Shown: positions 9,121 to 58,938, counted from the first letter of the stretch. The stretch is DNA of 64,000 nt from an uncultured Gemmatimonadaceae bacterium (GCA_963781585.1 CAWAGQ010000012.1:14307-78306), one strand, 5' to 3'. The notes: generated by a model not told the origin, from the sequence alone. Made by a program: numbers and translations.

Positions 9121-9122
9121 GG

Positions 9123-9830: not shown

Positions 9831-9851
9831 CGTTATGCGCTCAGAGAGGAC

Positions 9852-37749: not shown

Positions 37750-37765
37750 AACCGGAGGGGCGCGC

Positions 37766-40198: not shown

Positions 40199-41374
40199 AT
40201 GTCTCCTTCCGTCCATACGCCGCTCCGGCGGCTCCTGCTCGCGCTCTCGCTGCCCGCCGTGGTCGCGTGGGCCTGCTCCAGGAGTTCCGCCGCCAAAACG
40301 GACGGCGACTCGTCAGCCGCAGCATCGGACAGCGGCGGCGAGACCTCCGGCGCCCCGCGTCTGGCGCTCCCCGTAGCCGCCGCCAAGGTGCGCGAGGGCG
40401 ACCTCGTCCTGACCGTCACCACCACGGGCCAGGTGCGCTCGGAGAGCGAGGCGACGCTCAAGGCGGAGGTCGCGGGCACCGTGGACCGGGTCTTCGTGCG
40501 CGCCGGCGACCGGGTGCACAAGGGCGACACGCTGATTGCCCTCGACCCGCGTCCCCTCGATCTGGCCGTCGAGCAGGCGCAGGCCGCCGTGGCCGAGGCG
40601 CAGGTGCGGTACCGCGACTCGTACTTCCCCGACTCGTTCGTCACCGGCCGCATGCCGAGCGAAGAACAGCAGCGCATCTTCAGGGCGCGTTCCGGACTCC
40701 AGAGCGCGCAGGTCGCCCTCGAGCAGAAGAAGCTCGACCGCGAGCGGGCGACCGTTGCTGGCCCCATTCGACGGCATGGTGGACCAGGTCGCGGTGGCGC
40801 CCGGAACGCGGATCGGCGCCGGAGAGCTGGTCACGCGCGTGGTGAGCATAACCCAGCTGCGGGTGGAAGCTTCGGTGCTGGAGCACGACCTCCCGCTCAT
40901 CAAGGAAGGCGGCGAAGCGATCGTCACCAGCAGCGCGGCTCCGGACCATCCGATCATCGGGCGTATCGCCGCGGTGCTGCCAATGGTGGACACGACAACC
41001 CGCAGCGGGCGCGCGTATGTGCGCATTCCCCCCAACACGGTCCTGCGGCCGGGGATGTATGCCGACGTGCGGCTCGAGGCCAACCGCCTCACGCACCGGC
41101 GGCTGGTGCCGACGCGCGCGATCATCGAGCGCGACGGACGGCCGCTGGTGTTCGTGGTGAAGGACGGGACGTGCCCAGTGGGTCTACGTGAATCCGGGAC
41201 GATCCAACGGCACCGACACGGAGATCCTCCCCGACTCGGCATCGGGCGTCATTCCGGTGGCGGTCGGTGACCTGGTGGTCGTCGGAGGGACACCTCACGC
41301 TCACCCACGACGCCCCGGTGCGCGTGGTCAGCCCCGATACGGCCGCCGGTTCGGTGGGCGTGAAGAAGGAATGA
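40199..41374 (+). CDS. RND efflux periplasmic adaptor (MFP; frameshifted)
   Basis: AWAC lipobox-like start; EVAGTVDRVFVRAGDRVHKGD; APFDGMV; LRPGMYA. Confidence 0.9.
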
Positions 41375-41535
41375 CGGGTGGATGTCGTCGATCGGACCGC
41401 GATGGCGCATCCTGTGATCGCGGAGCGGCGCGGTGGTGCGCCTTCAGGTGATGCCCCGGCGACGGACGGGGCGCAGCGCCGGCGGACGTTCCGTCCGCTG
41501 ACCGGCTGACCCTCGATCCCGGCTTCCGGCACCCC

Positions 41536-44500
41536 GTGTCACTCGTCTCGATCGCCGTCCGCCGCCCGGTTTCCACGGTTGCCGCCACCCTGGGCATCGT
41601 GCTGCTCGGTTCGGTGTCGTTAGGCCGCATGCCGGTCTCGCTGCTGCCCGACGTCACGCTGCCGGTCCTGACCATCCGCACGCTGTACCCGGGGGCCGCC
41701 GCGCCGGAGGTCTCGCGGTTCGTGGCCGAGCCGATCGAGAAAGTCGATCGCCGCGATGCCCGGGCTGGTGGAGCTGCGCTCGGCGAGCCGGAACGGCGAG
41801 GTGACCACCACGGCGCGGTTCTCGTGGGGCACCGACATGCAGACCACGCTGCTCAACATGCGCGAGCGGCTGGACAACGCGCGCGGAAGCGCTGCCGGAG
41901 CGCGCCGAGCGGCCCACGCTCCTCACCAGCGACCCGGGCGAGCGCCCGATCGCCGTGCTCAGCCTGGGCATCCAGGGCAGCCTGCGCGACCTGGCGCGGA
42001 CCGCCGAGGACGTCTACGCACGCCGCCTGGAGCAGATCGCCGGGGTCTCCGAGCGTGGCGGTGGTGGGCGCGCCGGACGACGAGATCCGCGTGGAGGTCG
42101 ATCCCGAGCGGATGCGCGCGCTGGGCGTGACCAGCGACGACATCGCCCGCGCGATTCGCGCCGAGAACGCGACCGGAACCAGCGGGACCATCCGGCGCGG
42201 CCAGTTCCGCTTCACGGTGCGGACGATGACCGAGTTCCGCACGCCGGACGAAATCGGGGAGACGCCGGTGGGGCGGGCGGGGAGCGGCATCAAGCTGCGC
42301 GACCTGGCGGCGATCGACGTGACCACGGCCGACCCGCTCACGCTCACGCGCCTCGACAGCAAGCCGGCCGTGGGGCTGGTGGTCTACAAGGATGCCGGCG
42401 CCAACACGGTTTCGGTGACGAGCGAGCTGGAGAAGGTGGTGGGCCAGCTCCGCACCGAGTTTCCCGGCATCACGCTGACGATCGTGGCCGAGCAGGCACA
42501 GTTCGTGTCCGCGGCGCTCGGCAACCTGTGGCAGGAGATCATCGTCGGCGGGCTCCTGTCGCTGGGCGTGATTCTGCTGTTCCTGCGGGACTGGCGGCTC
42601 TCGCTGGCGATCGGGATGATGGTGCCGCTGTCGGTGCTGGTGGCGCTGGTGATCCTGCAGGGGATGCACGTCACCATCAACGTTCTGTCGTTAGGCGGGC
42701 TGGCGCTGGGGGTCGGCCTGCTGGTGGACAACGCCATCGTGGTAGCCGAGGCGGCGGTGCGGAAGCGGGAGGAGGGGCTGCCGCTCGACCAGGCGACGCT
42801 GATCGCCACCGAGGAAGTCTCGGGGCCGCTGATCGCCGGCACGCTCACCACGCTGCTGGTGTTCGGGCCGATCATCTTCGTGCGCGGGCTGGCGGCGGTC
42901 CTGTTCCGCGATCTCTCGCTGTCGGTGGTGATGAGCGTGGGGGCGTCGCTCATTCTCGCGCTGACGCTGATGCCGGTGATGGTGATCGGCCGCCGCCGCG
43001 CTTCGCTGAGCCAACCGGATCGGAAGCGACCGGTGCGTGCAGGGCGCGGCGTCGGATCGACGCACCCACCCGGCAGTCCCGACGGCGGTCGGCCGCCAGC
43101 CATCTCGCTGGTCACGGGCATCGGGGCGCGCCGGAGACAGGCTGGCTCCGGTGGTTCACCGCCATGGGCGAGTGGTTCGAGGGGCAGTACACGCGCGGGA
43201 TGAAGTGGTCGCTGGCGAATCCCGGTCCCCGTGCTCGTGATCACGGTCGGCGTCGCTGGCGTTCACCGTGTGGGTCACCATGCGCCTGCCGCGCGAGATC
43301 CTGCCGCAGGTACAGGAACGGGTGGTGGTGGCATCGCTGCAGCTCACCGAGGGGACGGCGATCGAGGAAACCACCCGCCAGGTGGCCCGGCTGGAGGACG
43401 CCGCTCACGCGTTAGGCTCGACGAATGTGTACAGCCGGGTGGGCGATCGCCACCGACGAGGAGATCCTGGCCGGCGCCGAGCCGGGGACGTCGGCTACCG
43501 CGCAGCTTATTCTCCCGGTGCCCGCGCGCGGCGACGCGCTCGGCTTCGCCGATGCGCTGCGGCGCGCGGTCCCCGACCTGGCCCAGGGCGCGCTGGCGCT
43601 CGACGTGGCCGGCGCCTCGGAATTCGGGAGCCTGATCGGGCGCGAAGGCCGGGTGGTGCGGGTCGAGATCAGCGCCCACACCGTCGAAGAAGCCGAGGTG
43701 TGGGCCGACACCGCGCGGGCGCGCCTGCGCGGGGTGTCGTCGCTCTCCGACGTGCGCGACGCGCAGGAGGGGCTGCAGCCGGTGGTAGAGGTGACGCTCG
43801 ATCGCGACCGCATCGCCCAGCGCGGACTGTCGTGTGGACGCGGTGTCGAACGCGCTGGCGGGCGGACTGGGGGGGGTCGACGCCAGCGAGCTCCGCGAGA
43901 CCGACCGGCGCACCCCGATCACCGTGCGGTTCGCGGGCGCGGCCAACGAGAACCTGGCCGCGGCGATGAACACGCTGGTGGCGGGCGTACCAGTGGCGCA
44001 GCTGATCCAGGTCAACGAGACGAAAGCCCCGATCGAGGTCGTGCGCGTGGGTCAGCGCCCGGTGGTGGCGGTGGAGGCGCTCATCGAACGCGGGGGCACC
44101 AGTCACGCGTCCGACGATGTCTCGCAGGTCATGTCCTCGCTCAGGATGCCGGTGGGAGTGAGCTGGACGGTGAGCGGGGCCAACGCCGAGCAACAGCGCA
44201 CTACCAACGAGCTCACCCTGGTCGCGATCCTGTCCGCCGCGCTGATGTTCCTGGTGCTGGCCGGCGAATTCGCCTCGTTCACCGTGCCGCTGGTGGTGAT
44301 GCTCACCGTCCCCCTGGCGGCCGCCGGCGGTCTGGTGTTCCTGTGGATGACGGGGCAGAGCATCAACGCGGTATCGCTCATCGGCATCGTCGTCATGATC
44401 GGCATGGCCGACAACGAAGCGGTGGTGAAGCTCGACGCGGTGCGCCGGTTCCGCGAGATGGGCCACTCGATCGAGGACGCCGTCTTGTTAGGCGGGCACC

Positions 44501-44847
44501 AGCGGCTGCGGGCGATCGCCATGACGTCCATCACCACGATCACCGGCGTGCTGCCGCTGGTGTTCGGGGGCGGCAGCGGCGGCGCGCTGTACCAGCCGCT
44601 GGCGGCGGGGGTCATCGGCGGCAGCGTGTCGGCGCTGGCGGTGACGTTCTTCCTGCTGCCGACCGCGTACGCGGTGCTCGAACGGCGTACCGAGCGGCGC
44701 AAGCTGCGGTCGCAGGGCGGCGGGGCGGCCACGGACGCGCGACCGGTCGCGTCAGGGACCCAGGCGTCGCCGGCCGCAGTGCACATGGTGATCGAGCGCG
44801 ACAGCCCGCGGGCGCCAGGATTGGGCGCCCTGGATTCGGAGAGGTGA
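41536..44847 (+). CDS. RND transporter permease subunit 1 (frameshifted)
   Basis: AVRRPV, GLALGVGLLVDNAIVVAE, GTLTT, RLRAIAMTSITT, FFLLP. Confidence 0.92.
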
Positions 44848-44851
44848 TCGC

Positions 44852-47800
44852 ATGATCCGCTGGGCGGTATCCCGTCCTGCCGTCGTATGGGCCACGAGCA
44901 TCACCATCGTGCTGGGCGGAGCGGTGGCGTTCACGCGGCTGGTCCTGGGCTCGGCGTCGGTGGAGCTGCCCAGGCTGAACGTGTCGATACCGTGGCCGGG
45001 TGCCGCGGCCGAACTGGTCGAGATGTACGTCGCCACGCCGGTGGAAGCCGCGATTCAGAGCGTGCGCGGGGTGCGCAAGACGCACAGCGATTCCAACGAG
45101 GGCATGGTGGCGCTCACCGTGGAACTCGAGCCCCGCGCCGACGTGCAGATCACGCGGCTGGCAATCCTCGAGCGGCTCGAGCTGCTGCAGCCGACATTCG
45201 ACTCGCTGCGAATCGGGCGCCCGTCGGTCACCAACTATGTGCCGAAGGACCTGAGCGAGGAGCCGCTCATCACGCTCTCGATCAACGGGCCGTATACGGC
45301 CGGGGCATTGGTCAAGCTCAGCACCGACGTGCTCGAGCCGCGCCTGTCGGCGGTCCCGGGGGTGGCGGGGATCGGGACGCAGGGCGGCACGTCACTGGGC
45401 GTTTCGGTTGCCTACGACCCGAGTTTTCTCCGACAGGTGGGCGTGGCGCCGGCCGCGGTCCAGGCGGCGCTGCTGCGCGCGCGGGTGGTGCAGGCGGTGG
45501 GCGACGCACAACAGGGTTCGATGGAGCGCGAGGTCACGATCCGCGATCAGCCGAACGTGATTTCGGATCTCGACAAGCTGCCGGTGATCGGCCGGGCGGG
45601 CCGCGTGTTCCGGCTGGGCGAGCTCGCCACGGTGCGTCCGGACGAAGACGCGAATGGGGCGTTCTACCGCGTGGACGGCCAGCCGGCGGTGATCCTGCAG
45701 ATCTCCCGCCTTCCGGGTTCGGACGCGATCAAGACCGCGGCGGCGGTGCGGGCCGCGCTCGCCGAGCTCAAGCCCAAGCTCCCGCTGGGCGTGCGTCTCG
45801 AGATCCGGAACGACACCAGCGAGGACATGGCGCACGACCTGCGCGATCTGCTGACGCGTGGCGCGATCGCGTTCGGCGCGGTCATTCTGGTCATCGCGAT
45901 CATGTTGCGCGACGCGCGCGCGGTGGCACTGGTGATCGGGAGCGCGGCGGTGGCCATTTCCGGCACCGCACTGGGGCTGTTCATCTTCAGGATCCCGGCG
46001 AACATGCTGACGCTGGCGGGGCTGGCGATGGGCATCGGAATACTCGTGCAGAACGGGCTGGTGGTGGCCGAGCGACTGGGGACGGTGCCCGATTCGCCGC
46101 GAGCGCGCGGCGACGCGGCGGCGCGCATCACGCCGGCGGTGATCGGCGCCACGATGACGACGGCGGTGGTGCTGTTCCCGTTCCTCTATCTGCAGGGCGA
46201 CACGCGGGCGGCGTTCGTCCCGTTCGCCTCGGCGTTCGCGATGGCGCTCGCCTGGTCGGTGCTGGCGTCGGTGGTGATGATCCCGGCGCTCGCCAAGGGG
46301 CACCGGATCCACGAGGCCAGCTGGCCCCGGATCCGACACGTGTACGCGCGGATCATCGCGCCCCTGATCCGGTGGCGGTGGATCACGTTAGGCGTGACGG
46401 TGCTGGCGCTCGGCGGACTCACCTGGGTGTTCGTCAAGAAGGTGCCGCGGTTCTCGTTCTCCGGCTTCGGGCAGCAGCGCACCTATCTCACGGCGTCGAT
46501 CAGCTTCCCGCGCGGCTCCGATCCCGAGGGCCTCGACCGGTCGATCCGCGAGCTCGAGGACATCGCCGTCGGCAAGCCGGGCGTGGAGCGGACGCAGGCC
46601 TACTCGGGAGGGAGCACCAGTGCCTTTCTGAACGTGATGTTCACGCACGAGTCGGAGTACTCAGCGCGATTCCGCTGGAGATGGAAGAGCTGATGACGCA
46701 GCGGGCGGTGCTGATCGGGGGGGCGAATGTGAGTGTGCACGGCCAGGGGCCGGGGTTCTACTCGGGGATGGGGTCGATGGGGATGGCGTCGTTCCGCATC
46801 CGGGTGCTGGGGTACTCGTTCTCGGGCGTGGAGGCGCTCGCCAGGGATCTCAAGGAGCGCCTGGAGCGCATCCCGCGGGTGCGCGACGTGGACATCGGCA
46901 CCACCTCGTTCGGCTACGGCGGCGGGGAGAAGGCGTTCGCGATCACCATCGAGCCCAATCGCGCCGTGCTGGCGCAATACGGGCTCACGGCGCAGGACCT
47001 CACGTACGCGGTGGGCCGCGAGATCCGCGGCGCCGCCGGGCAGATGCGGCTCGAGATCGGGGGCGAGGAGATCAACGTCCGCCTCAAGACGTCGGGATCA
47101 CGCGAGCGCACGCTCAACGAGCTGCGCGACGCGATGATCCCGACGCCGTCCGGCGGATCAGTGCGCCTGAGCGCGGTGTCGAACGTGAGCGAGCGCGAGG
47201 CGCTCAGCACCATCAGCCGCGAGGACCAGCAGTTCATCCGGGTGGTGGCGTACGAGTTCCGCGGTCCCAACAAGCTGGCGCAGCGCACCCACGACGCGTT
47301 CATGAAGACCGTCAGCACCCCGCCGGGCTACACGGTGGAGGACGCGGCGTACAGCTTTTACGGGCAGGACAAGAGCGAGCAGGGGCTGTGGCTGGTGTTC
47401 AGCATCGGGATCGTGCTGGTGATTCTGTCGGTGGCGCTGGTATTCGACTCGGTCTGGGCGGCCGGCGTCGTGTTCGCCAGCCTGCCCGTGGCGTTAGGCG
47501 GGGTGGTGGCTGATCTTCTGGCTGGCCAACGCGGCATTCACCCGCGAGGCGGCGGTCGGGGTGATCCTGGTGGTGGGACACGCGGTGAACCAGGCGATCC
47601 TGCTGGTCGACTCGGCGCTCCAGAAGCGGCGCGCCAACCGCCGGCGCGGGGCGCCCGGGCTCGGCATCCGTCAGGTGCTGCGGTCGGCGCTCGACCGCGG
47701 GGGGATGATCGTCCTGGTCACACTCAGCACGCTGGCCAGCCTGCTCCCGCTGGCGATCGGGACCAGGACGACGTCGCTGTTCGGGGCGATCGCGCTGGCG

Positions 47801-47881
47801 GCGGCGGGCGGGATGACGGCCGGCACGTTAGGCGCGCTGTTCGTGGTGCCGGCGATGCTGGTGGGGCGGCGCCGGCGGTGA
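44852..47881 (+). CDS. RND transporter permease subunit 2 (frameshifted near 46660 and 47510)
   Basis: WAVSRP, TLAGLAMGIGILVQNG, ATMTT, LLPLAIG...LFVVPAML. Confidence 0.9.
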
Positions 47882-48142
47882 GTACGGCGCCGGCCGCAGT
47901 CGATTACGCGGCACCACCGGTGCGCAAATCTGGGCCGGTTGGGCGATCTTCACCTACGATCTCGACACGCTCAGCAGGAAAGCGACGACCGGCCGAGCGG
48001 CATGCCAGCAGACTCGCGACAGCTCATGATCGGCGATGACACCAACACGCAGCCATGACACGAAGCAAATCTCAGCAGGGGGCAACACGGGTCACTCCTC
48101 CCTTGTCGCTTCTCCCAATCCCGATTTTTCCGGGGGAAGTAG

Positions 48143-48497
48143 TTAGAGCCGATCTTGCGGGCTTGTGGGCAGTGTGAGCAGCGCATCGTCGCTGTCAGCA
48201 GCGAAGGCCGCGAGTCGGGACCGATTCCGCAACAAGAGACCCGCGATCACGGCTGTGCCGGCGTTCCCCACCACCAGCCAGACCACCTTGGGCGGATGAC
48301 CGCGGAGGAAGCTGAGTTGACGGAAGTCGTCGTCCTTGGACACAACGAGGAAGCCGTGCTCGGCCGCGTATCGCCAAACCGCAATATCCGGTTGACCATG
48401 TAACTCGAGTTCGTCAACATGCGCGGTCTCCGGAAAGGCGGCCGTCAACCGGGCGACAAGTTTGTGGGCTGAGGTTCTCGTCGAGAAGGAGCTTCAC
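48143..48497 (-). CDS. DUF5615 PIN-like toxin (frameshift near start)
   Basis: VKLLLDENL..., DIAVWRYA, VSKDDDF, PPKVVWL; overlaps the DUF433 stop. Confidence 0.85.
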
Positions 48498-48721
48498 ACC
48501 CCCGATCCGGACGCCAGGCGACGCTCACGGGCAGCGGCAAAGGCCAGAGCGGCCCGTACATGCTCCGGGGCCAGAGCCGGAAACTCCTCAAGCAGCTGCT
48601 TCTCGCTCATCCCGCCAGCGAGATACTCCAGAACGTCATAGACAGTGATCCGGGTGCCTTTGAAGCAGGGCTTCCCGCTGCGAACCTCGGGCCGGATCTC
48701 GATGTAGTCGTCCAATCGCAT
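48494..48721 (-). CDS. DUF433 antitoxin
   Basis: MRLDDYIEIRPEVRSGKPCFKGTRITVYDVLEYLAGGMS...FPAL...VRAALAFAA. Confidence 0.92.
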   Translation of the reverse strand: MRLDDYIEIRPEVRSGKPCFKGTRITVYDVLEYLAGGMSEKQLLEEFPALAPEHVRAALAFAAARERRLASGSGV

Positions 48722-48803
48722 GGCGATACGATAGGCTCCGCACGAAAGCGCGACAAGAGCACGCGGCTCGAGATGGGATGCGCTCAACGCTGTGCATCGG
48801 CGT

Positions 48804-48944
48804 CCGCTGCCGCTGGCGATCGGGACCAAAACGACGTCGCTGTTCGGGGCGATCGCGCTCGGGGCGGCGGGCGGGATGACGGCGGGCACGTTAGTTAGGC
48901 GCGCTGTTCGTGGTGCCGGCGATGCTGGTGGGCCGGCGCCGGCG
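48804..48944 (+). repeat. direct-repeat copy of the RND2 3' end (47741-47877)
   Basis: About 137-bp near-identical copy with a TTAG 4-bp duplication. Confidence 0.95.
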
Positions 48945-48984
48945 TCGTTGACCAATGTGGCTACATGGAGCTACATTCAAATCC

Positions 48985-49293
48985 ATGATATCCGCCGGGA
49001 TTCGAGACCTGAAGAACAACCTGAGCCGCTACCTGCGGGGGCTCCGGCCCGGCGACGTCATTGCCATTACGGACCGAGGCCGCATCGTGGCGGAGCTTCG
49101 CGCACCATCCTCGCAGGGTAGCGCGAGCGCGGCTCCGTCCCCGCTGACGGGCGGGACGCGCGACTCCTGGCCGCAGGCGTCATCCGGGCGGCGCGTGAGT
49201 CCGGGGATCCCCTCGGCGACGTGGAAACGACGCGCGGGCGGCGGCACCCAGGGCACGGTCGCGGCGCTGATTCGAGAAGACCGGGGTGACTGA
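48985..49293 (+). CDS. Phd/YefM-family antitoxin (possible internal frameshifts)
   Basis: MISAGIRDLKNNLSRYL...IAITDRGRIVAEL. Confidence 0.88.
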   Translation: MISAGIRDLKNNLSRYLRGLRPGDVIAITDRGRIVAELRAPSSQGSASAAPSPLTGGTRDSWPQASSGRRVSPGIPSATWKRRAGGGTQGTVAALIREDRGD

Positions 49294-49741
49294 GCCGCGG
49301 GCACCGGCCGCACCCGATCCGTTCGAGCCCATTCGGTATATCGAGTCCAGTGCCCTTCTGTCGGCGATCCTCGAGCGCGATCCGGGTGCCATGCGTGCCG
49401 TTCGCCGACGCGGGCGTCGTGTGACGTCCGTGCTGACGATCGCGGAGTCGCACCGGGCGCTCGTTCGCGCCCGTGCGACAAACCGGCTCGATGCCGGACA
49501 GGTACGGGCGGCGGTGCGGTCGCTTCGGGCGTTCGCTGCGCGATGCGACCTGGTCGCCATCAGCGACGACGTGCTGCTCCGCGCGGGCCGGGCCTTTCCG
49601 TTCGAACCCCTACGGACGCTGGATGCGATCCACCTCGCCACGGCCGACCTGCTGGGTGAGCCTCCCGCCGTGGTCACCATCGTCACGCGCGACACACGCG
49701 TGCGCGAAAACGCCGCCGCGCTCGGCTACCCGACGGAATAG
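49286..49741 (+). CDS. vapC: VapC PIN-domain toxin
   Basis: YIESSALL, TSVLTIAE, LRTLDAIHLATA, VTRD. Confidence 0.9.
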   Translation: MTEPRAPAAPDPFEPIRYIESSALLSAILERDPGAMRAVRRRGRRVTSVLTIAESHRALVRARATNRLDAGQVRAAVRSLRAFAARCDLVAISDDVLLRAGRAFPFEPLRTLDAIHLATADLLGEPPAVVTIVTRDTRVRENAAALGYPTE

Positions 49742-49767
49742 GTGGTGTTCAGCACTACATGATGGAT

Positions 49768-49834
49768 GTGGGGCCCCGGCGCGCTCCGCGCCCCGCGGTT
49801 CCCACCGCGTAGCCCGGCCCGGAAACGACATCGG
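49768..49834 (+). repeat. direct repeat of the last bases of the RND tail plus its downstream sequence (matches 52959-53027)
   Basis: gcgcgctccgcg.cccgcggttcccaccgcgtagcccggcccggaa(a)cgacatcgg present at both sites. Confidence 0.93.
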
Positions 49835-49842
49835 CAGGACCC

Positions 49843-51662
49843 TCAGGGAGGGGAGGCGGAGGGCACGGCGGCCACGATCAGCGTGACCCGCCGCAGGGTA
49901 CTGTTCGACACTCTCCCAACATCGTCCGTTGTAGTTCGGGGAACTGTCAGCGTTCCCAAGTACTCCGTTCCGGACGTCGTCAGGACACGGGCCTGAATCG
50001 GTAACGAAGCGGGAATCCCGCACAATACGAAACCGCCACGCTCGTCGCTGTGGGCTTCAATGATCGTCTGAACCTGAGCTTCGTGCGGCTCCGACCAGCT
50101 GAACGTCAGGGTTGCGGAGCCCAGCGCAGCGCTGTCAGAGGTAATGACATCGCCGAGCACAACGAGATGTGGCTCATTTTCCCGGACGCCCAGGCAGCCC
50201 TCGACGGGAGCGCGCCAGGGCAGTCGCAGCTGCACGTTCCCGGTCCGATCCTGCTCCAGCACGACGGCCACGGATGCGATGCGCTTCACTACCTGCTGCA
50301 GCATCGTGTCGGCTTGGAGCTTACCGCCCGTATCCAGTCTGAATTGTGGAATGGCGACGGAGTCGAGCACCCGAACGGTGTATGGACCGGGAAGAAGTTC
50401 GCTGAACGCGAAGTGACCTTCTGCGTCAGTGCGCACCTGCCGATCGGTGGAATCGAGCAACACGCTTGCGCCAGGTACCGCCTGCGTGGTACCGCTGTTC
50501 AGCACGTTCCCGTCCAGCGCTGCCAGCGGGGTCGACCAGACCGTTCCGTCGGCGAGCGTCCCGGACGCAATCAGTCCTCCGCTCTCATGAAGTTCACCCG
50601 GAGCCGCGATCTCTCCCACAACCTGGACACGTCCCCACCTTACGAGTCCGGTTGGCAGGTATTTCAGCCTGGGCGAACGAATGTGCCAGTATCTGATGAT
50701 CGGCACGCCGTTCGAGAGCGACTCGAACTCGATCGTGCCTCCGGCGTGGGAGTCCGAGATGGCCGCGTCGACCCCACGGTACTCGAAGTCCAGGACGCGG
50801 AGCCGAGCGGAGCGCGAGATAGCCAGAGGACGCCCGAGATGTCCGGGATGGAGTCTCTTCCGCGTACGGGTGCGAAGGCGACGCCAATTTCGGTTGGACG
50901 ACGCCGGTCGCGGCGAATGGAAAGGCAGTGTGTGGCAGCAAAACTCGGAGCCAGCAGCACCTCGGGATCAGGCGCGTAATACACGACGCTGCTTTCACGC
51001 CTTTCCACGTAGCCGGCCCGCGTGAATTCCCCTGCATTCCGATCGGCGCGAATCGGAGTGACGTTCGCGGTCGTGACACGCTTCGAAGATTGTCGGACGG
51101 TGCGTTGGCCATCGCTGTCGAGGAGGCGGTCGAAGAGGATCTGCCTGACTGTGCCCGTTTGCGGCTGATTGGTGCTGGCGATGACCATGGCAACCAACGC
51201 ATCCGTCGCAGCGGTCCACGTGGCAAGCGCCTCGCGCTGGTCGGATCGTCTTGGACAGATCGGATTCGACGTTACGGCGACCGGCCGAAGCCGGGTCCCG
51301 AGCGGCGTCATTGCTACAACGAGATGTTCCTCGCCATTTGCGTGGAGCGGCCTCTCATACGGCAAGTACCCGATGCGGATGACCCGGAGAGCGCTGGCTC
51401 CATCACGCTGGATACGGAACGATCCGCTGTCAGACGACAGTGTGCGGGCGACGGTCATTCCGTCCGCGGCCAGAACCGCGACGACCGCCCCGGGAACAGC
51501 TGCGTCCGTTACGACATCACGCACGACACCGGTCAGTTGCTGCGACGCCGCGATGCGCGCGCCCAGGCACATCGCGACGATGCCCGGCAGCGAGTGACGA
51601 ACCAGACGAAAACATGAATGTGCGTGCAACATGGCCGTATCGCTTGTCGGCTGGACCTGCAT
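49843..51662 (-). CDS. secreted carboxypeptidase-regulatory-like domain protein (frameshift near 50790)
   Basis: LTGVVRD...VPGAVV, IRIGYLP, YYAPD, TDAEGHFAFSELLPGPYTV, GGFVLCG. Confidence 0.75.
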
Positions 51663-51693
51663 TCCGTATCATCGGATAACCGCTCCGAAGTGA

Positions 51694-52914
51694 ATGTCAA
51701 TCCCGGCGCAGACAGCGTGGGTTCACGCCTTCGCGGGAGACGCCGTGCGTACGGCAGGCCGCATCATCGCCCTGGTCGCGGCAGTCGCGTCCTCATCCGA
51801 AGCCGTCGCCCAGGAGGGCCGTCTGGTCGCGAATGACCAACCGGCGTCCGAACTCCAGTACGAGTTCACGCAGGTCCCCGGCGTGTTCGAACTCCGCGAC
51901 GGAAGGGTCGTGGTCGTAGACGAAGGCGATGCGTCGATCGGTATCGTGGACTTCCGGACAGGGCACCTGACGGTACTCGGACGCCATGGGGCCGGCCCCG
52001 CCGAGTATCGGATGCCGACCGTGATATACCCGTTAGGTGGCGATAGCCTGGCCGTACTCGATGACGCCGACGGGAGACTGCTCGTGATCGCACGCGACGG
52101 GAAGGCGGGCGGGTTCCTCTGGCCGCGCTCTCACCAGCCGGAAGCCGCCGGTATCGCCGCGACGACGGGCGACGGACGCGGGTTCCTGTACGGCGTGGCG
52201 CCCCCTGCGAAGCGAACGAGCGGCGGAGAGCTCGTGCTGACGGATTCTGCCCCGGTCCTCCGGTGGCCATTGGTGGGCGGACCGGTCGACACCGTTGCGG
52301 TGATCTATCGACCGCCGCCACACGGCGCCGTTGCCTCGCCATACGGCGCGATCGCGACACCGGGTAATGTCCCGGCACTGCTCACTCGGGACAGATGGGC
52401 TGTCTCCGGAGACGGGCGCGTTGCCGTGATGCACCACGATCCGTTTCAGGTCACCTTCACCTCGGCTTCCGGCGTTCGAGAATCGGGTCCCGTCATCTCG
52501 TACCTCAGACAACCGGTGACCGACTCCGTCAAACGCGCGTATCTCTCGGAGCGGGACATATCACGTGGCCTGATGGTGAACGCGGATGGATCCGCGGTTC
52601 CGATCCGGAGACCGCCGTCCCGGCGAATCGCGACCAGCTGGGCCGAGGAAGTGCCTCCGTTTCTCCCCGAGGCATTCCTTGGTTTTGACGGCAATGGAGT
52701 TCTGTGGGTGCAACGACCGACGTTCGGTCGCGAGGGCGCGCGGTACTATCTCATTGGTTCGGATGGGGCGGTGACCGATCGGATTCGCTTCCCCGAAGGA
52801 TTTCGAGTGGTGGGCTTCGGCCGTAACGCCATGTACCTGGTTCGGCGTGACCTCGACGACTTGGAGCATCTGCAACGTCGTCCATTGCCCAGCCGACCGG
52901 GACGGCGTCCCTGA
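51694..52914 (+). CDS. secreted 6-bladed beta-propeller protein (paralog of 36562-37749)
   Basis: ELRDGRVVVVD, LGRHGAGPAEY, DRWAVSGDGRVAV, DLDDLEHLQR. Confidence 0.8.
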   Translation: MSIPAQTAWVHAFAGDAVRTAGRIIALVAAVASSSEAVAQEGRLVANDQPASELQYEFTQVPGVFELRDGRVVVVDEGDASIGIVDFRTGHLTVLGRHGAGPAEYRMPTVIYPLGGDSLAVLDDADGRLLVIARDGKAGGFLWPRSHQPEAAGIAATTGDGRGFLYGVAPPAKRTSGGELVLTDSAPVLRWPLVGGPVDTVAVIYRPPPHGAVASPYGAIATPGNVPALLTRDRWAVSGDGRVAVMHHDPFQVTFTSASGVRESGPVISYLRQPVTDSVKRAYLSERDISRGLMVNADGSAVPIRRPPSRRIATSWAEEVPPFLPEAFLGFDGNGVLWVQRPTFGREGARYYLIGSDGAVTDRIRFPEGFRVVGFGRNAMYLVRRDLDDLEHLQRRPLPSRPGRRP

Positions 52915-53027
52915 CCGCCGGCACGTTAGGCGCGTTGTTCGTGGTGTCGGCGATGCTGGTGGGCCGGCGCCGGCGCGCTCCGCGTCCCGCGGTTCCCACC
53001 GCGTAGCCCGGCCCGGAACGACATCGG
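52912..53027 (+). repeat. third copy of the RND2 3' tail joined to the downstream repeat
   Basis: 52912-52975 matches 47814-47877; 52976-53027 matches 49782-49834. Confidence 0.93.
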
Positions 53028-53049
53028 GGCGCGGTGTCGCGCCCCGATG
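53022..53049. terminator. 12-bp hairpin between convergent genes
   Basis: catcggggcgcg-gtgt-cgcgccccgatg; no clear U-tract. Confidence 0.45.
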
Positions 53050-53111
53050 CGGTCACTTCATTTTCCACCCACGGTCCCCGTCAGCGGCTGGCTGCGCCCG
53101 CGGAGATGGCC

Positions 53112-53888
53112 TCACGGCTTCTTGATCAGCGCCGTGATCTCGGGGGGCGGCACCACTTCCTTGGGATCGACCACGTCCCATTCCCACGAGGTCATCGTCA
53201 TCACCGACCGCTGGCCCTGCGTCTCGGATGTCACCTTGGTGGGGCGCTTCATCCCGCCAAAATCCTTGTACTCGCTCTGGTACGTGGTCCCCTCCACCTC
53301 GCCCATCGGCGTCGACGCCTTGGCCGTGGAGGCAATCAGGAAACCGTCGGATACCGCGAAACAGTCGGTGGTGATGTTGCCCGACTTCCAGGTGTGCTTC
53401 ACGCGATAGCAGTCCTGGCCATTGATCGTCGTCTTCTCCAACGTCTCGGAGCTGACGATGTTGGCCGACGTGCGAAGCGAGTTCTCGGGGTCGGCCTGTT
53501 CCTTGATCGCATCGGCCATGGCGCCGGTCAGCACCTGCGGACCGGTCATCGGGTTGACGGACCACGCGGTGGTACCGTCATATCCCTGTTTGATCTCGCC
53601 GAGACCGCCGAGCGTCACCGTCGACGACACGGCATTCGGGAAGATCTGCACCACTTCCATGGTCGCCGACATTCCAGCGGTCGGCACTTCCATGGTCGCC
53701 TTCATGCGCGCCGACTTGTGCTGCTTCCAGACATCGCCGCCGACGGCCTTGGCGTACCTGGCAATGAGATCGGCCGCCGCCGGAAGACCGGCCGCAGCGT
53801 CCTGGGCGTGCACCGGCGGCGCAACGAGCAGCATCGTCAGGCCGGCGTAGGACAAGGCGTGGCCGGCGCGCCGGAACAGGTCGGACAT
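53112..53888 (-). CDS. secreted hypothetical protein (LolA-like fold suspected)
   Basis: Signal peptide; YAKAVGG, QGYDGTTAWSVNPMTGPQ, YKDFGG; strong codon bias. Confidence 0.7.
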   Translation of the reverse strand: MSDLFRRAGHALSYAGLTMLLVAPPVHAQDAAAGLPAAADLIARYAKAVGGDVWKQHKSARMKATMEVPTAGMSATMEVVQIFPNAVSSTVTLGGLGEIKQGYDGTTAWSVNPMTGPQVLTGAMADAIKEQADPENSLRTSANIVSSETLEKTTINGQDCYRVKHTWKSGNITTDCFAVSDGFLIASTAKASTPMGEVEGTTYQSEYKDFGGMKRPTKVTSETQGQRSVMTMTSWEWDVVDPKEVVPPPEITALIKKP

Positions 53889-53983: not shown

Positions 53984-55361
53984 CTACCGAAGGTTGCCGC
54001 GTGCGGTGTGCCGGCGGCGCTCCAGGCCGAGCCAGTGCAGCGCAGCGGCCAGGGTCTCATCGCGCCCGGCCAGCAGCGCGTTCCGGCGCAGCGGTACCAG
54101 CTCATCCGGGACGATTCCCTTCCCCTCCAGGCGGCGACCCGAGGGGTCCACGAAGTCGGCCACGGCGTACTGGAGCGCGTCGCCGTTCGGCAGCCGCGTG
54201 ATGAGACTCGGCAGGGCCTCACCGGCTGTGGTGTCGCCGAAGATCCGCGCCCGGCCGTACTTCTGGAGCGCCGCCACGAAGATCTCGGTCGTGCTCGCCG
54301 ACAGTTCGTCGACCAGCACGGCGAGCGAGCCCGCGTACGGCGTCACCGGGGTGCCGTCGCGCGTCACGCGACGCGGATTCGCCACGTAGCGGAGCGTCGC
54401 GCTCCGCATGTGCAGCTCGCCCAGGAGCAGCTCGTGATCGACGAAATGCCCGGTGATCCCGATCACCATGGCCGCCACGCCCCCCACGTTCCCTCGCAGG
54501 TCCAGTACGATGCCGTCGCACTGGCGGAACTCGTTCATCGCGTCGTCGAACGGCTGCGCGATCGCCGTCATCCAGACGTTGAACCGGATCACGCCCACGC
54601 ACCCGCCGCGCTCGTCAATGCGTCGCCGATCGAACCAGGTCGGCACCGGCGGCAGCTGGCCCAGCCGCACGACGGTGCCTGGCGCGTCGCGCCGCACCAG
54701 GTCGCGCTCGACCAGGATGCCGGCGCCGTCGCGAAACGTCAGGTGCACGCCCGATCCAGGGGCGCCGTGGAGCATCCGCACCGCGTTCAGCAGCCGGCGC
54801 AGGGCCGCGACCTTGGCGTTAGGCGACGCGCCCGCCGCGCTGGAGGATCGCGCGGCCGCATCAAGCGTGTCGAGCGCAACGACGGTCCATCCGGGAGACA
54901 CCCCCGCGCGCGCCGCCGGGCCGGTCGAGTCGACCCCGGAGACCACAAGCTCGTCGCCGATGTATCGCACCTCGAATCCCAGGTCGCCGGGCGCATCGGC
55001 AGCCGCCTGGCCCTCATCCGAAGACGGCTCGCCGGCGACGATCCCGAAGTGCGAATCGCCGAGCGTGGCCAGCATGCGACCCATGGCGGCCCGCGATTCC
55101 TCGCGGGTGCGTGCGCGGGCCACCTGTGGCCGGATCTCGTCGCGGACCCGGTTCCAGTCGAGGCCGTGCATGGTGGAGTCGTAGTAGGTGTCGCGGATCC
55201 GGCGCCACGCGCTGTCGAACGACGCGAGCTCGAGGGCCGTGTCGATCGGCCGCGGCCGCGGTACGCGCGGACTGCGCCCTGACCGCACGAGGTGGCGCGG
55301 CCGAGACGAGAAGCACCCCAACGATGAGGGCGCGGGCAGTACGAGTGGCGCGGCTTACCAT
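53984..55361 (-). CDS. S41 family (tail-specific) peptidase with PDZ domain (frameshift near start)
   Basis: LGDSHF, IVLDLRGNVGG, VLVDELSASTTE, GDTTAG, LEGKGIVPD. Confidence 0.92.
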
Positions 55362-55944: not shown

Positions 55945-56793
55945 GTGACTGATCTCACGCCCTTTGAGATTCCTCCTGACACCGACGGAAGTTTCGATTC
56001 GATCGGCCAGGAAAACGGCGCGCCGTATTGGTGGATGAGTGACCTGCGGGACCTTCTCGGATACGAGGGTCCCAAGGCATTCCAGAAGCCCGTATCGAAG
56101 GCGATGGCCGTTTGCACTTCGCTCGACGTTTCGGTGCCGAAAACTTCAGGTATGCAAAGCGTATCATTGGCGGACAGGAGATCGACGACTGTAAGCTATC
56201 TCGCGTGGCTGTTATCTAATCGCTATGAATTGCAATCCGGTGACCTATCCGGCCGTCGCGAAGGCACAGGTGTACTTCGCGGCGATGGCGGAGATTGCAA
56301 GGCAGGCCAATGAACATATCGAGGGCGTGGAGCGCGTCCTTCTCCGCGATGACATGTCCGAGGCGGAAAAGGCCTCTCGCGTGCCGCGAAGGGCGCGGGT
56401 GTGAGAGATTACGCGATCTTCCGCAACAAGGGTTACATCGGCCTTTACAACCTGAGTCTCAACCAGATTCTGCATCGGAAGGGACTGGACGCTGATGTGA
56501 CCTTGCACGACTACATGGGGAAGGAAGAACTGGCCGCAAATTGGTTCAGGGTCACGCAGACGGAAGCGAAGCTGCGTCGAGCGCATCCATGGTCAGGCTC
56601 CTGCAGAGAGGACCGCATACAGTGTCGGTCGGGAAGTGCGGCGAGGTATCGAGAGGATGGGAGGAACGGTGCTGAGGATCTTCCGCCAGCGGAGAATATC
56701 AAGAAGGTCAAGAGTGGTCTCAAGAAGCGCGCGCGCGAGCTCCAGAGGATGGACAAGAAAAAGCGGTTGCCTGCGCCCAAGAATGACGGTTAA
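55945..56793 (+). CDS. dinD: DNA damage-inducible protein D-like (frameshifted)
   Basis: YWWMSDLRDLLGY, LSRVACYL, AKAQVYFA, DYAIFRNKGYIGLY, DYMGKEELAANWFRVTQTEAKL, EDLP. Confidence 0.85.
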
Positions 56794-57650
56794 GCATTCC
56801 CGAGTAACGCCACAATTTCCTCGACCTTCCACACATGATCGGTGATGCCAGCGGCCATTGCTGGCGTCGTGTGGACGCCCTTCCGTTCCTTCGTCAACGT
56901 GTGATGCACATGCACGAAGTTGTACGCCATCATGTACAGGCTGATGGCGTGCATGTGGTTCTCCCACTTCTTGCTGTAGCCGTTCGTCAGGCGGGTTAGG
57001 CGACGGTTCCGCATCCGCATCGTGAGGTTGTGCGACTCGACAAAGCTCGTGGAGACCTTCGCCATGTCGGGCGTGCCCATCACCCAGGTCTTTTCCGTGC
57101 CGACAACTTCCGACGGGCTGTAGCGTCGGGCCGCTTCCTTCTCAGGTCCGGGGTGCGAGTACAATTTGTCTAGTATCGCGTAATCCACCCTATTCCAACC
57201 GAAGGCCTTTTCCACGGCCTTGAGGTACGGCTTGTGGCCGTCCGTGGTGAGTTGGACGCGGTGCGCGAGACGCGATACTAGATCCTCCGTAAATGCCCTG
57301 GCAGCGGCTACGTCGCGACGGCCAACATGCCAGCAGGCTAAGAGCTTGGTGTGGGCGCACAGGGCCGTCCAGGTCCAGCAATCGCCCTTGCCCTGGCCCT
57401 TCTCGGTGCGCTTGACGCGCTTCTCCTTCTTGCCGACGAAGCTCCAAATCTCGTCGCACTGAATCTCGGTGCAGGGGAGCGCTACAAGTGCCTTGTCCTG
57501 GTACTCGGCGCATGCGGCACCGACATCCGCAAGTAGCCGCAGCACCGTACCCTTGGCGGTTCCGGTGATGCGGCATGTGGCGCGGATGGAGTTGCCTTCG
57601 ATAAGCGAGCGGATGACGGCTACGCGCTTGGCAAGAGGGAGCTTGTTCAT
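56790..57650 (-). CDS. IS1-family DDE transposase
   Basis: MNKL HTH (EGNSIRATCR); DEIWSFVGKK; TTDG; STSFVESHNLTMR; TPAMAAG. Confidence 0.92.
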   Translation of the reverse strand: MNKLPLAKRVAVIRSLIEGNSIRATCRITGTAKGTVLRLLADVGAACAEYQDKALVALPCTEIQCDEIWSFVGKKEKRVKRTEKGQGKGDCWTWTALCAHTKLLACWHVGRRDVAAARAFTEDLVSRLAHRVQLTTDGHKPYLKAVEKAFGWNRVDYAILDKLYSHPGPEKEAARRYSPSEVVGTEKTWVMGTPDMAKVSTSFVESHNLTMRMRNRRLTRLTNGYSKKWENHMHAISLYMMAYNFVHVHHTLTKERKGVHTTPAMAAGITDHVWKVEEIVALLGNA

Positions 57651-57655
57651 AATGA

Positions 57656-57684
57656 ACAATATGCTTGCTCCCTAGCATTGTCAA
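57656..57684 (-). promoter_or_regulatory. sigma70 promoter of the transposase
   Basis: TTGACA-N17-TATTGT ending 5 nt before the ATG. Confidence 0.75.
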
Positions 57685-57695
57685 GCTATTTTGAG

Positions 57696-58406: not shown

Positions 58407-58431
58407 ATAGTAGCCTCCGGGTGTGGGCTAC

Positions 58432-58460
58432 ATATTAGGCTATGATGTGGGCTGCGTCAA
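58432..58460 (-). promoter_or_regulatory. sigma70 promoter of the 236-aa gene
   Basis: TTGACG-N17-TAATAT on the minus strand. Confidence 0.65.
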
Positions 58461-58698
58461 CGCGAAGCAGTCGGCTTCTCAGCTAGCCGTGGTAGCCGAC
58501 GCAAGTCTTGATTTCCTCGGCCCCGTCGCTACGTTGGGGAACGCAGAACCGGCGGCCCGGGCGCTCCCCTTTGCAAAGGTGCCCGAACCGCCGGTTGAAC
58601 CCCAACCGACGCCGAAGCGTCAGCGGGAGGTGATGAGTGATGGCTGCGAAAAGAAGACTACTGAATAGGTAGAAAGGTAGCCAGGGCGCAATGGGCGA

Positions 58699-58938
58699 TC
58701 AGCAATGGTCGCCCATTGTTTGCGTTATCTTCTTCTGCCAACGTGTGCGGGCTGCCTTCTGCGCGATGGCCTTGCGACGACTCGCGCTGAGTTTCCTGGC
58801 GCGGACGCTACCGCCCTTCGTAGCGCCTGGGCTGGTCTCTCGCGGCTTATCGTTTTCGTGCTGACCCACCGCGACTTCGACGACGAACTTTGCGAGCTGC
58901 GCTGTATCACGCGGGCGCTTGGGGTTGGATTTCGCCAT
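58699..58938 (-). CDS. small basic protein of the type found beside IS1/IS1595-like transposases
   Basis: KRPRDTAQLAKFVVEVAVG...KGGSVRARKLSASRRKAIAQKAARTRW. Confidence 0.8.
   Translation of the reverse strand: MAKSNPKRPRDTAQLAKFVVEVAVGQHENDKPRETSPGATKGGSVRARKLSASRRKAIAQKAARTRWQKKITQTMGDHC

Follow-up and report, generated by a model that had tools for sequence, protein, structure and literature searches.

A stack of gene-tail repeats and accessory cargo behind an RND transporter gene in a soil Gemmatimonadaceae bacterium

The RND2 locus and its inserts

The window analyzed here is a stretch of 64,000 nt from the genome of a soil Gemmatimonadaceae bacterium (5.7 Mb, 67% GC). It harbors a tandem pair of RND (AcrB-family) transporter genes, the second of which, RND2, is followed by three inserts separated by copies of its own tail. 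The features of the locus are listed below, with the junction 47877|47878 denoted as ^.

41536–44847, plus strand: RND1, first gene of the tandem RND pair, by Pfam ACR_tran matches
44852–47881, plus strand: RND2, second gene of the pair and target of the insertions
47741–47877, plus strand: A, gene-attached tail copy, encoding ...LLPLAIGTRTTSLFGAIALAAAGGMTAGTLGALFVVPAMLVGRRR(R) and ending at ^
47878–48803, no strand: insert X1, 926 nt, GC 62.5%, with toxin–antitoxin (TA) pair 1; its GTGA gives the present RND2 stop
48143–48448, minus strand: DUF5615 (PIN-like) gene, putative toxin (Pfam PF18480, E = 1.1e-21)
48494–48722, minus strand: DUF433 gene, putative antitoxin (Pfam PF04255, E = 1.2e-22)
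48804–48944, plus strand: A′, orphan tail copy, ending at the same junction ^
48945–49782, plus strand: insert X2, 838 nt, a compact TA unit
48948–48977, plus strand: promoter-like TTGACC-18-TACATT of X2
48985–49293, plus strand: Phd-like gene of X2 (E = 5.4e-4, below the Pfam cut-off)
49286–49741, plus strand: PIN/VapC gene of X2 (PIN E = 1.9e-10)
49783–49834, plus strand: B′, duplicate of the C-terminal extension plus 3′ UTR of the ancestral gene, beginning exactly at ^
49835–52911, no strand: insert X3, 3077 nt, GC 64%
49843–50706 and 50664–51662, minus strand: two CarboxypepD_reg genes of X3
51694–52914, plus strand: 406-aa putative beta-propeller gene of X3, divergent
52912–53027, plus strand: A″+B, displaced original gene end, reading TAGTLGALFVVSAMLVGRRRRAPRPAVPTA up to the stop TAG at 53004–53006
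53022–53049, plus strand: ancestral RND2 terminator-like hairpin, with a 12-bp stem, a GTGT loop, and a T-rich tail
53112–53888, minus strand: p258, conserved right-flank gene, convergent to RND2
53984–55321, minus strand: S41 peptidase, conserved right-flank gene

The repeat coordinates given by the initial annotation, which had described a repeat array at an RND gene end, all check out, and its cargo assignments (DUF433/DUF5615, Phd/VapC, and carboxypeptidase-like and propeller genes) are borne out by Pfam and Atlas clusters.

The ACR_tran matches of RND1 fall on ORFs 41536–43203, 43268–43969, and 43834–44847, in at least three frames of the assembly. RND2 shifts frame near 46690 and 47510, at other places than its counterpart in the sister genome G001, and each of its orthologues in G024 and G016 is one uninterrupted ORF; the frame changes in RND2 are probably assembly indels. 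The present RND2 stop, TGA at 47879–47881, is contributed by X1. To the right of the array, p258 and the S41 peptidase gene are syntenic with RND1–RND2 in other genera. An IS1-like DDE transposase ORF is found at 56790–57659, 3.7 kb right of the array, and the earlier statement that the array lacks a neighboring transposase is to be qualified accordingly. Type IV pilus genes (pilM, pilN, pilO, and secretin genes) are also located in the window, at 5898–11003.

A comprises the final 137 nt of RND2. A′ is 93% identical to it over 89 nt and 86–100% identical in the remainder, and harbors GTTAGTTAGG at 48890–48899, one TTAG more than A; the extra TTAG is also present in G001. A″ (52912–52975) shares 94% identity with A, while the two copies of the 52-nt B (49783–49834 and 52976–53027) differ by one substitution and one 1-nt indel. 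BLAST against the whole 5.7-Mb genome recovers A′, A″, and B with E values of 2.5e-52, 1.6e-21, and 3.1e-21, respectively, and no further A or B copies elsewhere in it. These copies stand as originally described, whereas the third copy, an “end of A” preceding B′ (49759–49782), is weak, with matches at approximately 17 of 23 positions; the final bases of X2, ..GGGGCCCCGGCG, look like the end of A. Repeat lengths thus vary widely (~6–10, 64 + 52, and 137 nt).

The small B hairpin (cgcggt-tccc-accgcg) is confirmed at 52988–53003, as is the end of B homology at 53027, within the left arm of the 53022–53049 hairpin, and the fold of 52960–53065 has a z of −4.25 relative to shuffles. Copy 4 reads ...VGRRRRAPRPAVPTA to its stop and is followed by the terminator and the convergent p258. 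Because A″+B is still an intact gene end with a strong terminator behind it, A+B represents the ancestral end, as had been proposed, and the structure does require about three separate insertions.

The junction ^ is the exact point at which RND2 orthologues of five other genera cease to align; these have ...PAMLVGR(R) in common, followed by unrelated extensions of ~5 to 40 residues. The junction after ..GGCGCCGGCG, common to three sites and previously regarded as a recombination site, need not be one, since it also coincides with this limit of conservation. A perfect palindrome, GCCGGCGCCGGC, is situated within the last bases of A, at the junction. The tail also holds the hyper-abundant word of the genome, CGTTAGGC, and each A copy contains GTTAGGC, the core-site word of integrons.

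X1 and X2 each carry a putative type II TA pair, i.e., two small adjacent genes of known families. Near codon 12, the reading frame of the DUF5615 gene shifts in this assembly, and a three-frame reading locates its N-terminus, ..KLLLDENLSP, in another frame upstream, reflecting either a frameshift or an assembly error; a guarding role of the TA pairs in the array, as suggested initially, is conjectural. Both X1 genes are encoded on the minus strand, X2 includes a promoter-like site of its own, and X3 contains three divergent genes. DNA homologues of X2 in G002, G036, G140, and G183 extend from the −35 box to the stop codon with unrelated flanks, and the X3 gene module is also present in genomes of genus g16. 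The Atlas clusters nearest to the 406-aa protein bear DUF5128/NHL propeller families. Its ORF terminates in tail-derived bases at the X3/A″ joint, the stop TGA sitting in the first bases of A″. Short strings are shared at the distal joints: TGAC at X3/A″ and CCGGCG at X2/B. With a GC3 of 0.47–0.81 as opposed to 0.87–0.89 in the flanking genes, the cargo is compositionally distinct, and none of the inserts has a second copy in the genome.

Divergence of the tails, relatives, and other loci

A and A′ differ by five synonymous and three non-synonymous changes, and A and A″ by three and one, respectively. At two other loci of the genome with duplicated tails, the corresponding values are 8.5 and 4.5 (C4) and 3 and 3 (C11). 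Pooled, 19.5 of the 31 changes are synonymous, compared with 24.8% expected (binomial P = 1.8e-5), indicating that the copies evolved apart in different lineages while serving as functional gene ends. Judged by their sequences, the tail copies are allelic tails from relatives and not in-situ duplications. An in-situ origin, in which template switching or slipped repair copied the resident tail during insertion and the copies then drifted, would dispense with a donor tail and would fit the microhomology-type joints. However, the synonymous bias is unexpected if one copy drifted as non-coding DNA, and X1, X2, and X3 lack a second genomic copy as template. In-situ duplication is therefore disfavored and appears very unlikely.

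The one close sister genome, G001, has the same array with identical order and spacing. Identity between the two genomes is 100% in the RND1 stretch, 92–94% up to 47866, and 97–100% inside the array, with mismatches to the right beginning at 53169; the switch at the array edges is taken to mark the ends of a recombination tract. Inside X1–X2, the genomes differ by at least 35 substitutions and several indels and thus represent two distinct haplotypes. The occurrence of the array in both answers the concern, raised at the outset, that alternative downstream flanks had been concatenated into a strain-chimeric assembly. The assembly is a MAG with 7.2% estimated contamination and is prone to indels (frame changes in both RND genes and the DUF5615 gene), and the two genomes have 100% identical multi-kb blocks in common, so they may not be fully independent. 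However, the repeats are diverged and, at 52–141 nt, too short to mislead an assembly of 17 contigs for 5.7 Mb, and a like structure is found in another genus, making an artefact extremely improbable.

In G134, a genome of that genus, a 201-nt RND2 tail repeat (91.5%) surrounds a 5-kb insert bearing an IS256-type transposase; the resident copy is the downstream orphan copy. The site is uninterrupted, i.e., empty, in the congeners G292 and G315, and the G134 insertion at RND2 is independent of the present array.

A self-BLAST with ORF check, covering 26 short neighboring repeat pairs, shows that at least four other genes of the present genome have similar integrase-less tail duplications. Each duplicated tail adjoins a stop codon; two belong to peptidase genes, of families S9 (190 nt, 92.6%) and S10 (52 nt), and the others to an ORF located behind an M14 peptidase gene (185 nt, 96.8%) and to a 712-aa ORF. 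At the C11, C4, C7, and G134 loci, the joint is within a few nucleotides of the stop codon. In contrast, true islands of the same genome exhibit a 100% identical 56-nt repeat and an integrase, or a tRNA half. G001 does not have the orphan S9 tail, and its cargo at the C13 locus differs from that of the present genome.

The initial annotation envisaged an active hotspot with cassettes gained or lost between repeats. In such a recombinase-free system, RecA would loop out circles that pass from cell to cell and integrate again through one Campbell-type crossover in the RND2 tail. Repeats of 137 nt at 93% identity, as present here, are adequate RecA substrates, and Campbell-type integration by its nature leaves the homology segment duplicated while permitting variable repeat lengths. 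The type IV pilus genes in the window and CGTTAGGC in the tail also agree with this model, and two A′ positions that match A in G001 but not in the present genome hint at conversion between copies. However, the sole close relative shows no variation in the arrangement, an outcome that the initial annotation itself had named as refuting, although at 97.5% local identity the test is weak. Searches of the genome and collections turned up neither empty nor alternative alleles, and neither circles nor additional X1–X3 copies. X2 has no usable repeat at its right side, and the origin of the first tail-plus-cargo circle is left unexplained by the model. An active cassette system of this kind is improbable.

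Recombinases and known systems

As previously noted, the array has no recombinase in or beside it, and the window contains no tRNA. None of the 11 PF00589 matches of the genome falls in the window, nor does any PF00239 match; the nearest PF00589 match (C12:9376–9897) is ~52 kb from the array. In tblastn searches of 47000–53600 with the genome's eight integrase-bearing ORFs, the best E is 0.15. PF00589 matches are likewise absent from the G001 array contig, from ~65 kb around the G134 insertion, and from 15 kb around every other tail-duplication locus, and no complete integrase-bearing element is seen at the RND2 loci of the present genome, G001, or G134. No carrier of the tail emerged when viral contigs were scanned for its pattern or when the whole array was compared by BLAST with plasmid records.

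Integron attC sites (RYYYAAC ... GTTRRRY) form an imperfect hairpin and are acted on by the tyrosine recombinase IntI; their cassettes are mostly promoterless, single-ORF, and in one orientation. Like integron arrays and integrase-less attC clusters, the RND2 array stacks short cassettes, including TA pairs, at one site. In contrast to integrons, its repeats are coding tails running to both sides of GTTAGGC, and its cassettes bring promoters of their own and carry several genes in mixed orientations. An attC motif scan of 47000–53600 yields one candidate (48782–48900), which, folded as DNA, is no better than shuffles (z of −0.42 and −0.22). With no IntI, attI, or attC fold and multi-gene cargo of mixed orientation, an integron cassette array is rejected.

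Rhs/CdiA arrays arise by C-terminal displacement, leaving “orphan” toxin tips with immunity genes. Here too, new gene ends would have pushed older ones downstream via recombination in a conserved segment. However, what is repeated in the RND2 array is the conserved gene end, a variable toxic tip being absent, and its cargo is unrelated to the host protein, an AcrB-family transporter; an Rhs/CDI-type orphan-tail array is thus also rejected. The initial annotation, by which the array matched neither system, is correct for these two, but e14/icd and CIMEs provide precedents.

The prophage e14 is a 15-kb-class element, whereas the array units are 0.8–3 kb, three deep, and without a recombinase. 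In E. coli, e14 yields the order icd – e14 – icd′ pseudogene; as described in PMC6379469, the incoming DNA brings a substitute 3′ end, the gene stays intact, a 163-bp orphan tail remains, and the tail copies differ slightly, all as observed here, although e14 is a single element with its own integrase.

The primary papers on CIMEs and tandem accretion are reportedly Pavlovic 2004 and Bellanger 2011. As reviewed in PMC5704250, Streptococcus thermophilus has such ICESt1/ICESt3-type elements at the fda 3′ end, where, as in the array, integrase-less segments are stacked behind a protein-coding gene. The array shares with CIMEs the presence of units between direct repeats that include the target gene 3′ end, without integration genes. 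It differs in that none of the genomes examined offers clear evidence of a cognate integrase, a full element, or an att core, the repeat lengths are very unequal, one joint truncates a cargo ORF, and several unrelated genes of the genome show the pattern as well.

The main rival explanation is tandem accretion, in which three elements whose attP contained part of the RND2 tail integrated near ^ and decayed to integrase-less remnants (CIMEs), with the TA pairs persisting as loss-resistant. It would account for the same junction in three of the four sites, the palindrome GCCGGCGCCGGC there, and, if the element-borne tail was under selection, the synonymous excess. Its tail duplications of 64–190 nt would fit the 163 bp of e14 in icd (PMC6379469), a length typical of integrase-borne elements. 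However, no integrase or remnant is found here, in G001, or at the G134 insertion, nor a PF00589 match near the other loci; the many different target genes would each require their own recombinase; the X2 repeat is at most 6–10 nt; the X3 joint cuts the extreme end of the propeller ORF; and the tail is in none of the viral or plasmid records searched. Tandem accretion is a serious but rather unlikely explanation.

Origin of the array

The array is a genuine scar of recombination, and its type is broadly familiar. It is tentatively read, at a little under even confidence, as DNA captured from relatives, anchored by homology at one joint and joined illegitimately at the other. In each event, DNA from a related Gemmatimonadaceae lineage, with its own RND2 tail joined to other downstream DNA, would have recombined homologously within the conserved tail, such that homology ends at ^ (or at the end of B for X3). 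The second joint would be illegitimate, at a short microhomology inside or beside the resident tail, which would consequently be duplicated and pushed downstream instead of being replaced. Every event would strike the functional copy, the most economical order being X3, then X2, then X1, and no dedicated recombinase would be required; we infer the recombination pathway, the order of events, and any part of DNA uptake, of which the pilus genes in the window give at most an indirect hint.

Homology-facilitated illegitimate recombination usually replaces or deletes recipient DNA. The array resembles its products and transformation-generated duplications (merodiploids; PMC3240628 and PMC3784515) in combining a homology joint with a possible microhomology joint, in having no dedicated recombinase, and in having relatives as putative donors; the homology joint, ^, is the end of the conserved coding sequence. 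It differs in that a short anchor is duplicated, whereas replacement or deletion is the classical result.

Capture is favored by the allelic tails, the position of ^, the strings shared at the distal joints, and the absence of recombinases; by the recurrence at other genes, the contrast with true islands, and the G134 case; and by the varying sister loci, the identity switch at the array edges, and the distinct cargo composition. Against it, all events here are duplications, for which sister-chromosome or circular intermediates would be needed. Three junctions at ^, with a palindrome there, are also expected from a site-specific recombinase, and duplications of this length are typical of integrase-borne elements. 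None of the 401 family genomes searched is a donor with RND2 directly joined to X1, X2, or X3, and the microhomologies are short strings rich in G and C, which a genome of 67% GC could produce by chance.

On the capture reading, the array may be three recombination scars stacked and fixed at the RND2 3′ end, a possibility rated just short of an even chance. Its cargo consists of accessory modules common in the family, namely, two putative type II TA pairs and a CarboxypepD_reg/propeller module.

Anatomy of the array

The window spans C12:14307-78306 of the source genome (G000; 5.7 Mb in 17 contigs, completeness 93.5%, contamination 7.2%). It carries two tandem transporter genes, RND1 and RND2, the second of which is followed by copies of its own end alternating with three inserts, X1 to X3. 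Both genes change frame in the assembly. These changes are treated as assembly indels and not as biology, because RND2 of the sister genome G001 changes frame at other places and its orthologues in G024 and G016, two further genomes of the family, are single ORFs.

Features of the array (window positions)
41536-44847: RND1, AcrB-family RND gene in tandem with RND2
44852-47881: RND2, AcrB-family RND gene; frame changes near 46690 and 47510
47741-47877: A, tail copy attached to RND2, with GTTAGG where A' has GTTAGTTAGG
47878-48803: X1, with a minus-strand DUF433/DUF5615 pair (TA1)
48804-48944: A', 93% identical to A, carrying GTTAGTTAGG at the site of GTTAGG
48945-49782: X2, compact unit with a promoter-like TTGACC-18-TACATT, then Phd-like and PIN/VapC genes (TA2)
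49783-49834: B', differing from B by one substitution and one 1-nt indel
49835-52911: X3, two CarboxypepD_reg genes and a divergent 406-aa gene
52912-52975: A'', 94% identical to A
52976-53027: B
53022-53049: hairpin with a 12-bp stem and a T-rich tail (z = -4.25), B ending inside its left arm

The repeats listed in the initial annotation are real and lie far beyond chance. In a whole-genome search of G000, the E-values are 2.5e-52 for A', 1.6e-21 for A'', and 3.1e-21 for B, and no further tail or B copies occur elsewhere in the genome. The third copy, ahead of B', bears a weak likeness to the end of A at 49759-49782. The fourth (A'' plus B) reads in frame to its stop (...TAGTLGALFVVSAMLVGRRRRAPRPAVPTA*), and is followed by the hairpin and the convergent gene p258. 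On this basis A+B is taken to be the former RND2 gene end, and the proposal that A+B was the ancestral state is borne out. Gene calls on the 141-nt and 116-nt orphan tails, or on comparable tails at other loci of G000, should be avoided in annotation. A separate 46-nt direct repeat (91%) is present in the same window, with copies at 59057-59102 and 61147-61192, 2 kb apart.

The cargo has a GC3 of 0.47-0.81, versus 0.87-0.89 in the right-flank genes p258 and S41 peptidase. The DUF5615 gene of X1 has its N-terminus in another frame, and the promoter-like site of X2 starts 3 nt past the junction. The nearest Atlas clusters of the 406-aa protein of X3 are Gemmatimonadota proteins, some with DUF5128/NHL propeller families. 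This propeller family has 19 tblastn matches in G000 and the second CarboxypepD_reg protein has 15. A second pair of a propeller paralogue (37% identical to that of X3) and a CarboxypepD_reg gene lies at 36259-38719. In a DNA search of 401 family genomes with the array interior, homologues of TA2 and of the modules are found in unrelated contexts, and none has RND2 directly upstream of X1, X2, or X3. The DUF433 gene is the sole part of the array matched in a plasmid collection.

The shared junction and the sister genome

A and A' end, and B starts, at a single point (...GGCGCCGGCG^, at 47877|47878 for A). In RND2 orthologues of five other genera, the conserved sequence stops exactly at this point (...PAMLVGR/RR) and gives way to extensions (~5 to 40 residues) and downstream DNA that are unrelated. 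G095, G024, and G016 retain the order RND1-RND2-[variable]-p258-S41; their variable intervals hold lspA; M20, thioredoxin_9, and lspA; and M20, respectively, and their RND2 loci have no tail repeats. Since the junction marks the end of orthologue conservation, a shared junction is the expectation if every tail copy derives from its own RND2 allele; judged from these alignments, the point need not be a recombinase site.

The substitutions between copies bear on their origin. A and A' differ by 5 synonymous and 3 non-synonymous changes, A and A'' by 3 and 1, and the copies at two analogous loci of G000 by 8.5 and 4.5 (contig C4) and 3 and 3 (contig C11). Pooled, 19.5 of 31 changes are synonymous, against 24.8% expected (P = 1.8e-5). 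This excess indicates that the copies diverged while serving as gene ends, which argues against duplication in situ. All three tail copies share the lineage-specific codons ACG TTA GGC (T-L-G), in place of the T-V-G or T-I-G of other genera, pointing to close relatives as donors.

Integrase-independent capture of DNA carrying a related RND2 tail is the tentatively preferred explanation. The incoming DNA would consist of a related tail with a foreign flank; one joint would form within the homology and the other at a short shared string, such as TGAC at X3/A'' or CCGGCG at X2/B. At the X3/A'' joint, the propeller ORF of X3 ends in tail bases.

The array recurs with unchanged spacing in G001, a genome of the same genus that is 97.5% identical over 16 kb. 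At least 35 substitutions and several indels separate the two genomes inside X1-X2, so two haplotypes carry the array. Between 41000 and 59000, their identity is a sharp mosaic in which 100% blocks (41000-45750, 50500-53000, and 57250-58750) alternate with blocks of 84-95%; the RND1 frame changes fall within a 100% block. Such blocks reflect either exchange in the very recent past or assembly data shared in part, and the two genomes are thus possibly not wholly independent. Identity also switches at the array edges, the last RND2 mismatch lying at 47866 and the first rightward mismatch at 53169, which demonstrates homologous exchange through the array flanks. A check for reciprocal chimeras on the SNP patterns of A, A', and A'' in both genomes has too few sites to decide.

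The initial annotation had envisaged cassettes being actively gained and lost, with variable cargo and empty alleles across strains. G001, the sole close relative compared, retains the same arrangement. An active system of excised circles and reinsertion lacks positive evidence and is quite improbable. A degenerate tail pattern gives two matches in genome contigs (that of G024 and one 2-kb contig) and none in metagenome or viral contigs.

Duplicated gene ends at other loci

An independent insertion is found at RND2 in G134, a genome of another genus (g65). There, the RND2 tail is repeated downstream of a 5-kb insert that contains an IS256-type transposase, and 42 nt are deleted inside the orphan copy. 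The orphan is contiguous with the native downstream gene and is thus the displaced resident tail. The congeners G292 and G315 have an uninterrupted, empty site, and of the five g65 genomes that the family DNA search matched to the tail, only G134 has two hits on one contig. No integrase lies within ~65 kb of the insertion. Between the G134 copies there are 7 synonymous and 7 non-synonymous changes; ~4 of the latter, counted by eye on the two translations, lie within the first eight codons, at the repeat edge. The occurrence of an analogous structure in a different genus makes an assembly artefact unlikely.

Within G000, self-BLAST yields 48 neighbouring direct-repeat pairs. Among the 26 short pairs checked against ORFs, several have one copy ending at the stop codon of a long ORF.

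Tail duplications and classical islands
G134:C17 (L082), 8149-8348 and 13352-13552: 201-nt RND2 tail, second copy 5.2 kb downstream, 91.5%
G000:C4:237861-240131 (L044 2862-5132): S9 peptidase gene tail, 190 nt, 92.6%; 1.9-kb insert with a propeller paralogue
G000:C11:248954-252177 (L043 2955-6178): 185-nt tail (96.8%) of the ORF behind an M14 peptidase gene, with its end precisely at the stop codon
G000, S10 peptidase gene: 52-nt tail duplicated at the stop codon
G000, 712-aa ORF: tail duplicated at the stop codon
G000:C13:27161-32488 (L051 1161-6489): two interleaved pairs, 121 nt and 79 nt, both 82%
G000:C10:169304-182254 (L047): classical island, 12.7 kb between 109-nt repeats starting in the 3' half of a tRNA gene
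G000:C4:657734-672663 (L050): classical island, 15 kb, perfect 56-nt repeats, tyrosine integrase adjoining the right repeat

The orphan S9 tail has an internal stop; in G001 the insert is present and the orphan tail with its adjoining 315 nt is absent. The 2.9-kb insert at the C11 locus holds an HTH gene and a CarboxypepD_reg-like gene, with a DUF433/DUF5615 pair just past the orphan copy; the G001 contig ends inside this locus, which is uninformative there. The C13 repeats surround an M20 peptidase gene and Phd/VapC-type pairs, including a Phd/VapC paralogue between the repeats, and in G001 these flanks enclose different cargo. Sister loci therefore vary, as the S9 and C13 comparisons show. 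None of these five loci of G000 (S9, M14-neighbour, S10, 712-aa, and C13) has a tyrosine recombinase (PF00589) match within 15 kb; the classical islands, in contrast, are marked by an integrase with a perfect 56-nt repeat or by half of a tRNA gene.

Recombinases, rival readings, and significance

G000 has 11 PF00589 matches and none to the serine recombinase family PF00239; neither family is represented in the window. Searches for integrase remnants in the array (tblastn with eight integrase ORFs) return noise, with a best E of 0.15. The earlier statement that no integrase, transposase, or tRNA lies within or beside the array holds for integrases and tRNA genes, of which the window has none, with a caveat for transposases, as an IS1/IS240-like DDE transposase ORF (289 aa) lies at 56790-57659 (-), 3.7 kb right of the array and past the S41 gene. 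An integron reading was rejected, the one attC candidate being motif-level and lacking the attC fold.

The main rival, tandem accretion of decayed integrative elements, would explain the common junction and entail the duplication inherently. It has good precedents: integrase-less remnants of integrative elements (CIMEs; PMC5704250) and e14/icd, with its 163-bp orphan tail (PMC6379469). However, it leaves no recombinase trace in three genomes and would require many specificities, and is considered rather unlikely. In the literature searched, there is no direct precedent for integrase-less TA cassettes accompanied by duplicated ends of the target gene, nor for Gemmatimonadota transformation or integrons.

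The octamer CGTTAGGC occurs 1442 times in G000 versus 217 expected, equally on both strands and in a fixed codon phase (xCG TTA GGC) that uses a rare Leu codon. Copies in the window include 47492-47499, 47825-47832, and 52925-52932. A tie to the tail repeats was dropped, the word being found in 1 of 22 short repeat pairs at other loci (copy 2 only, C4:965793-965852), and it is treated as a separate phenomenon. The window also has a type IV pilus cluster at 5898-13941 (-), with secretin, PilO, PilN, PilM, and two prepilin-like genes, which is of interest if the organism takes up DNA.

A broader proposal, advanced as a long shot, is that Gemmatimonadaceae maintain a recombinase-free cassette economy. 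Conserved gene tails would act as portable homology boxes, and small self-contained modules such as putative TA pairs and propeller/CarboxypepD_reg sets would be picked up, stacked, and passed among relatives through DNA uptake and host recombination alone, the RND2 tail of this lineage also carrying the uptake-signal-like CGTTAGGC. If true, this would in effect amount to an integrase-free integron operating at several genes of each genome.

The array itself is real and well resolved: insertions are stacked behind duplicated gene tails, with no integrase, in a variant of scar types already known. Its moderate interest comes mainly from recurrence, both inside the genome and at RND2 of a second genus. 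It offers a cleanly resolved example of accessory genes piling up behind a conserved gene with no mobile-element enzyme in sight, in which the tail copies are allelic and another genus provides an independent insertion together with empty sites. It also shows that such orphan tails, in soil bacteria not yet cultured, are readable as dated scars of gene flow between relatives, and a gene tail joined to a marker would be a concrete, testable substrate to find out whether DNA is taken up and recombined by Gemmatimonadaceae.
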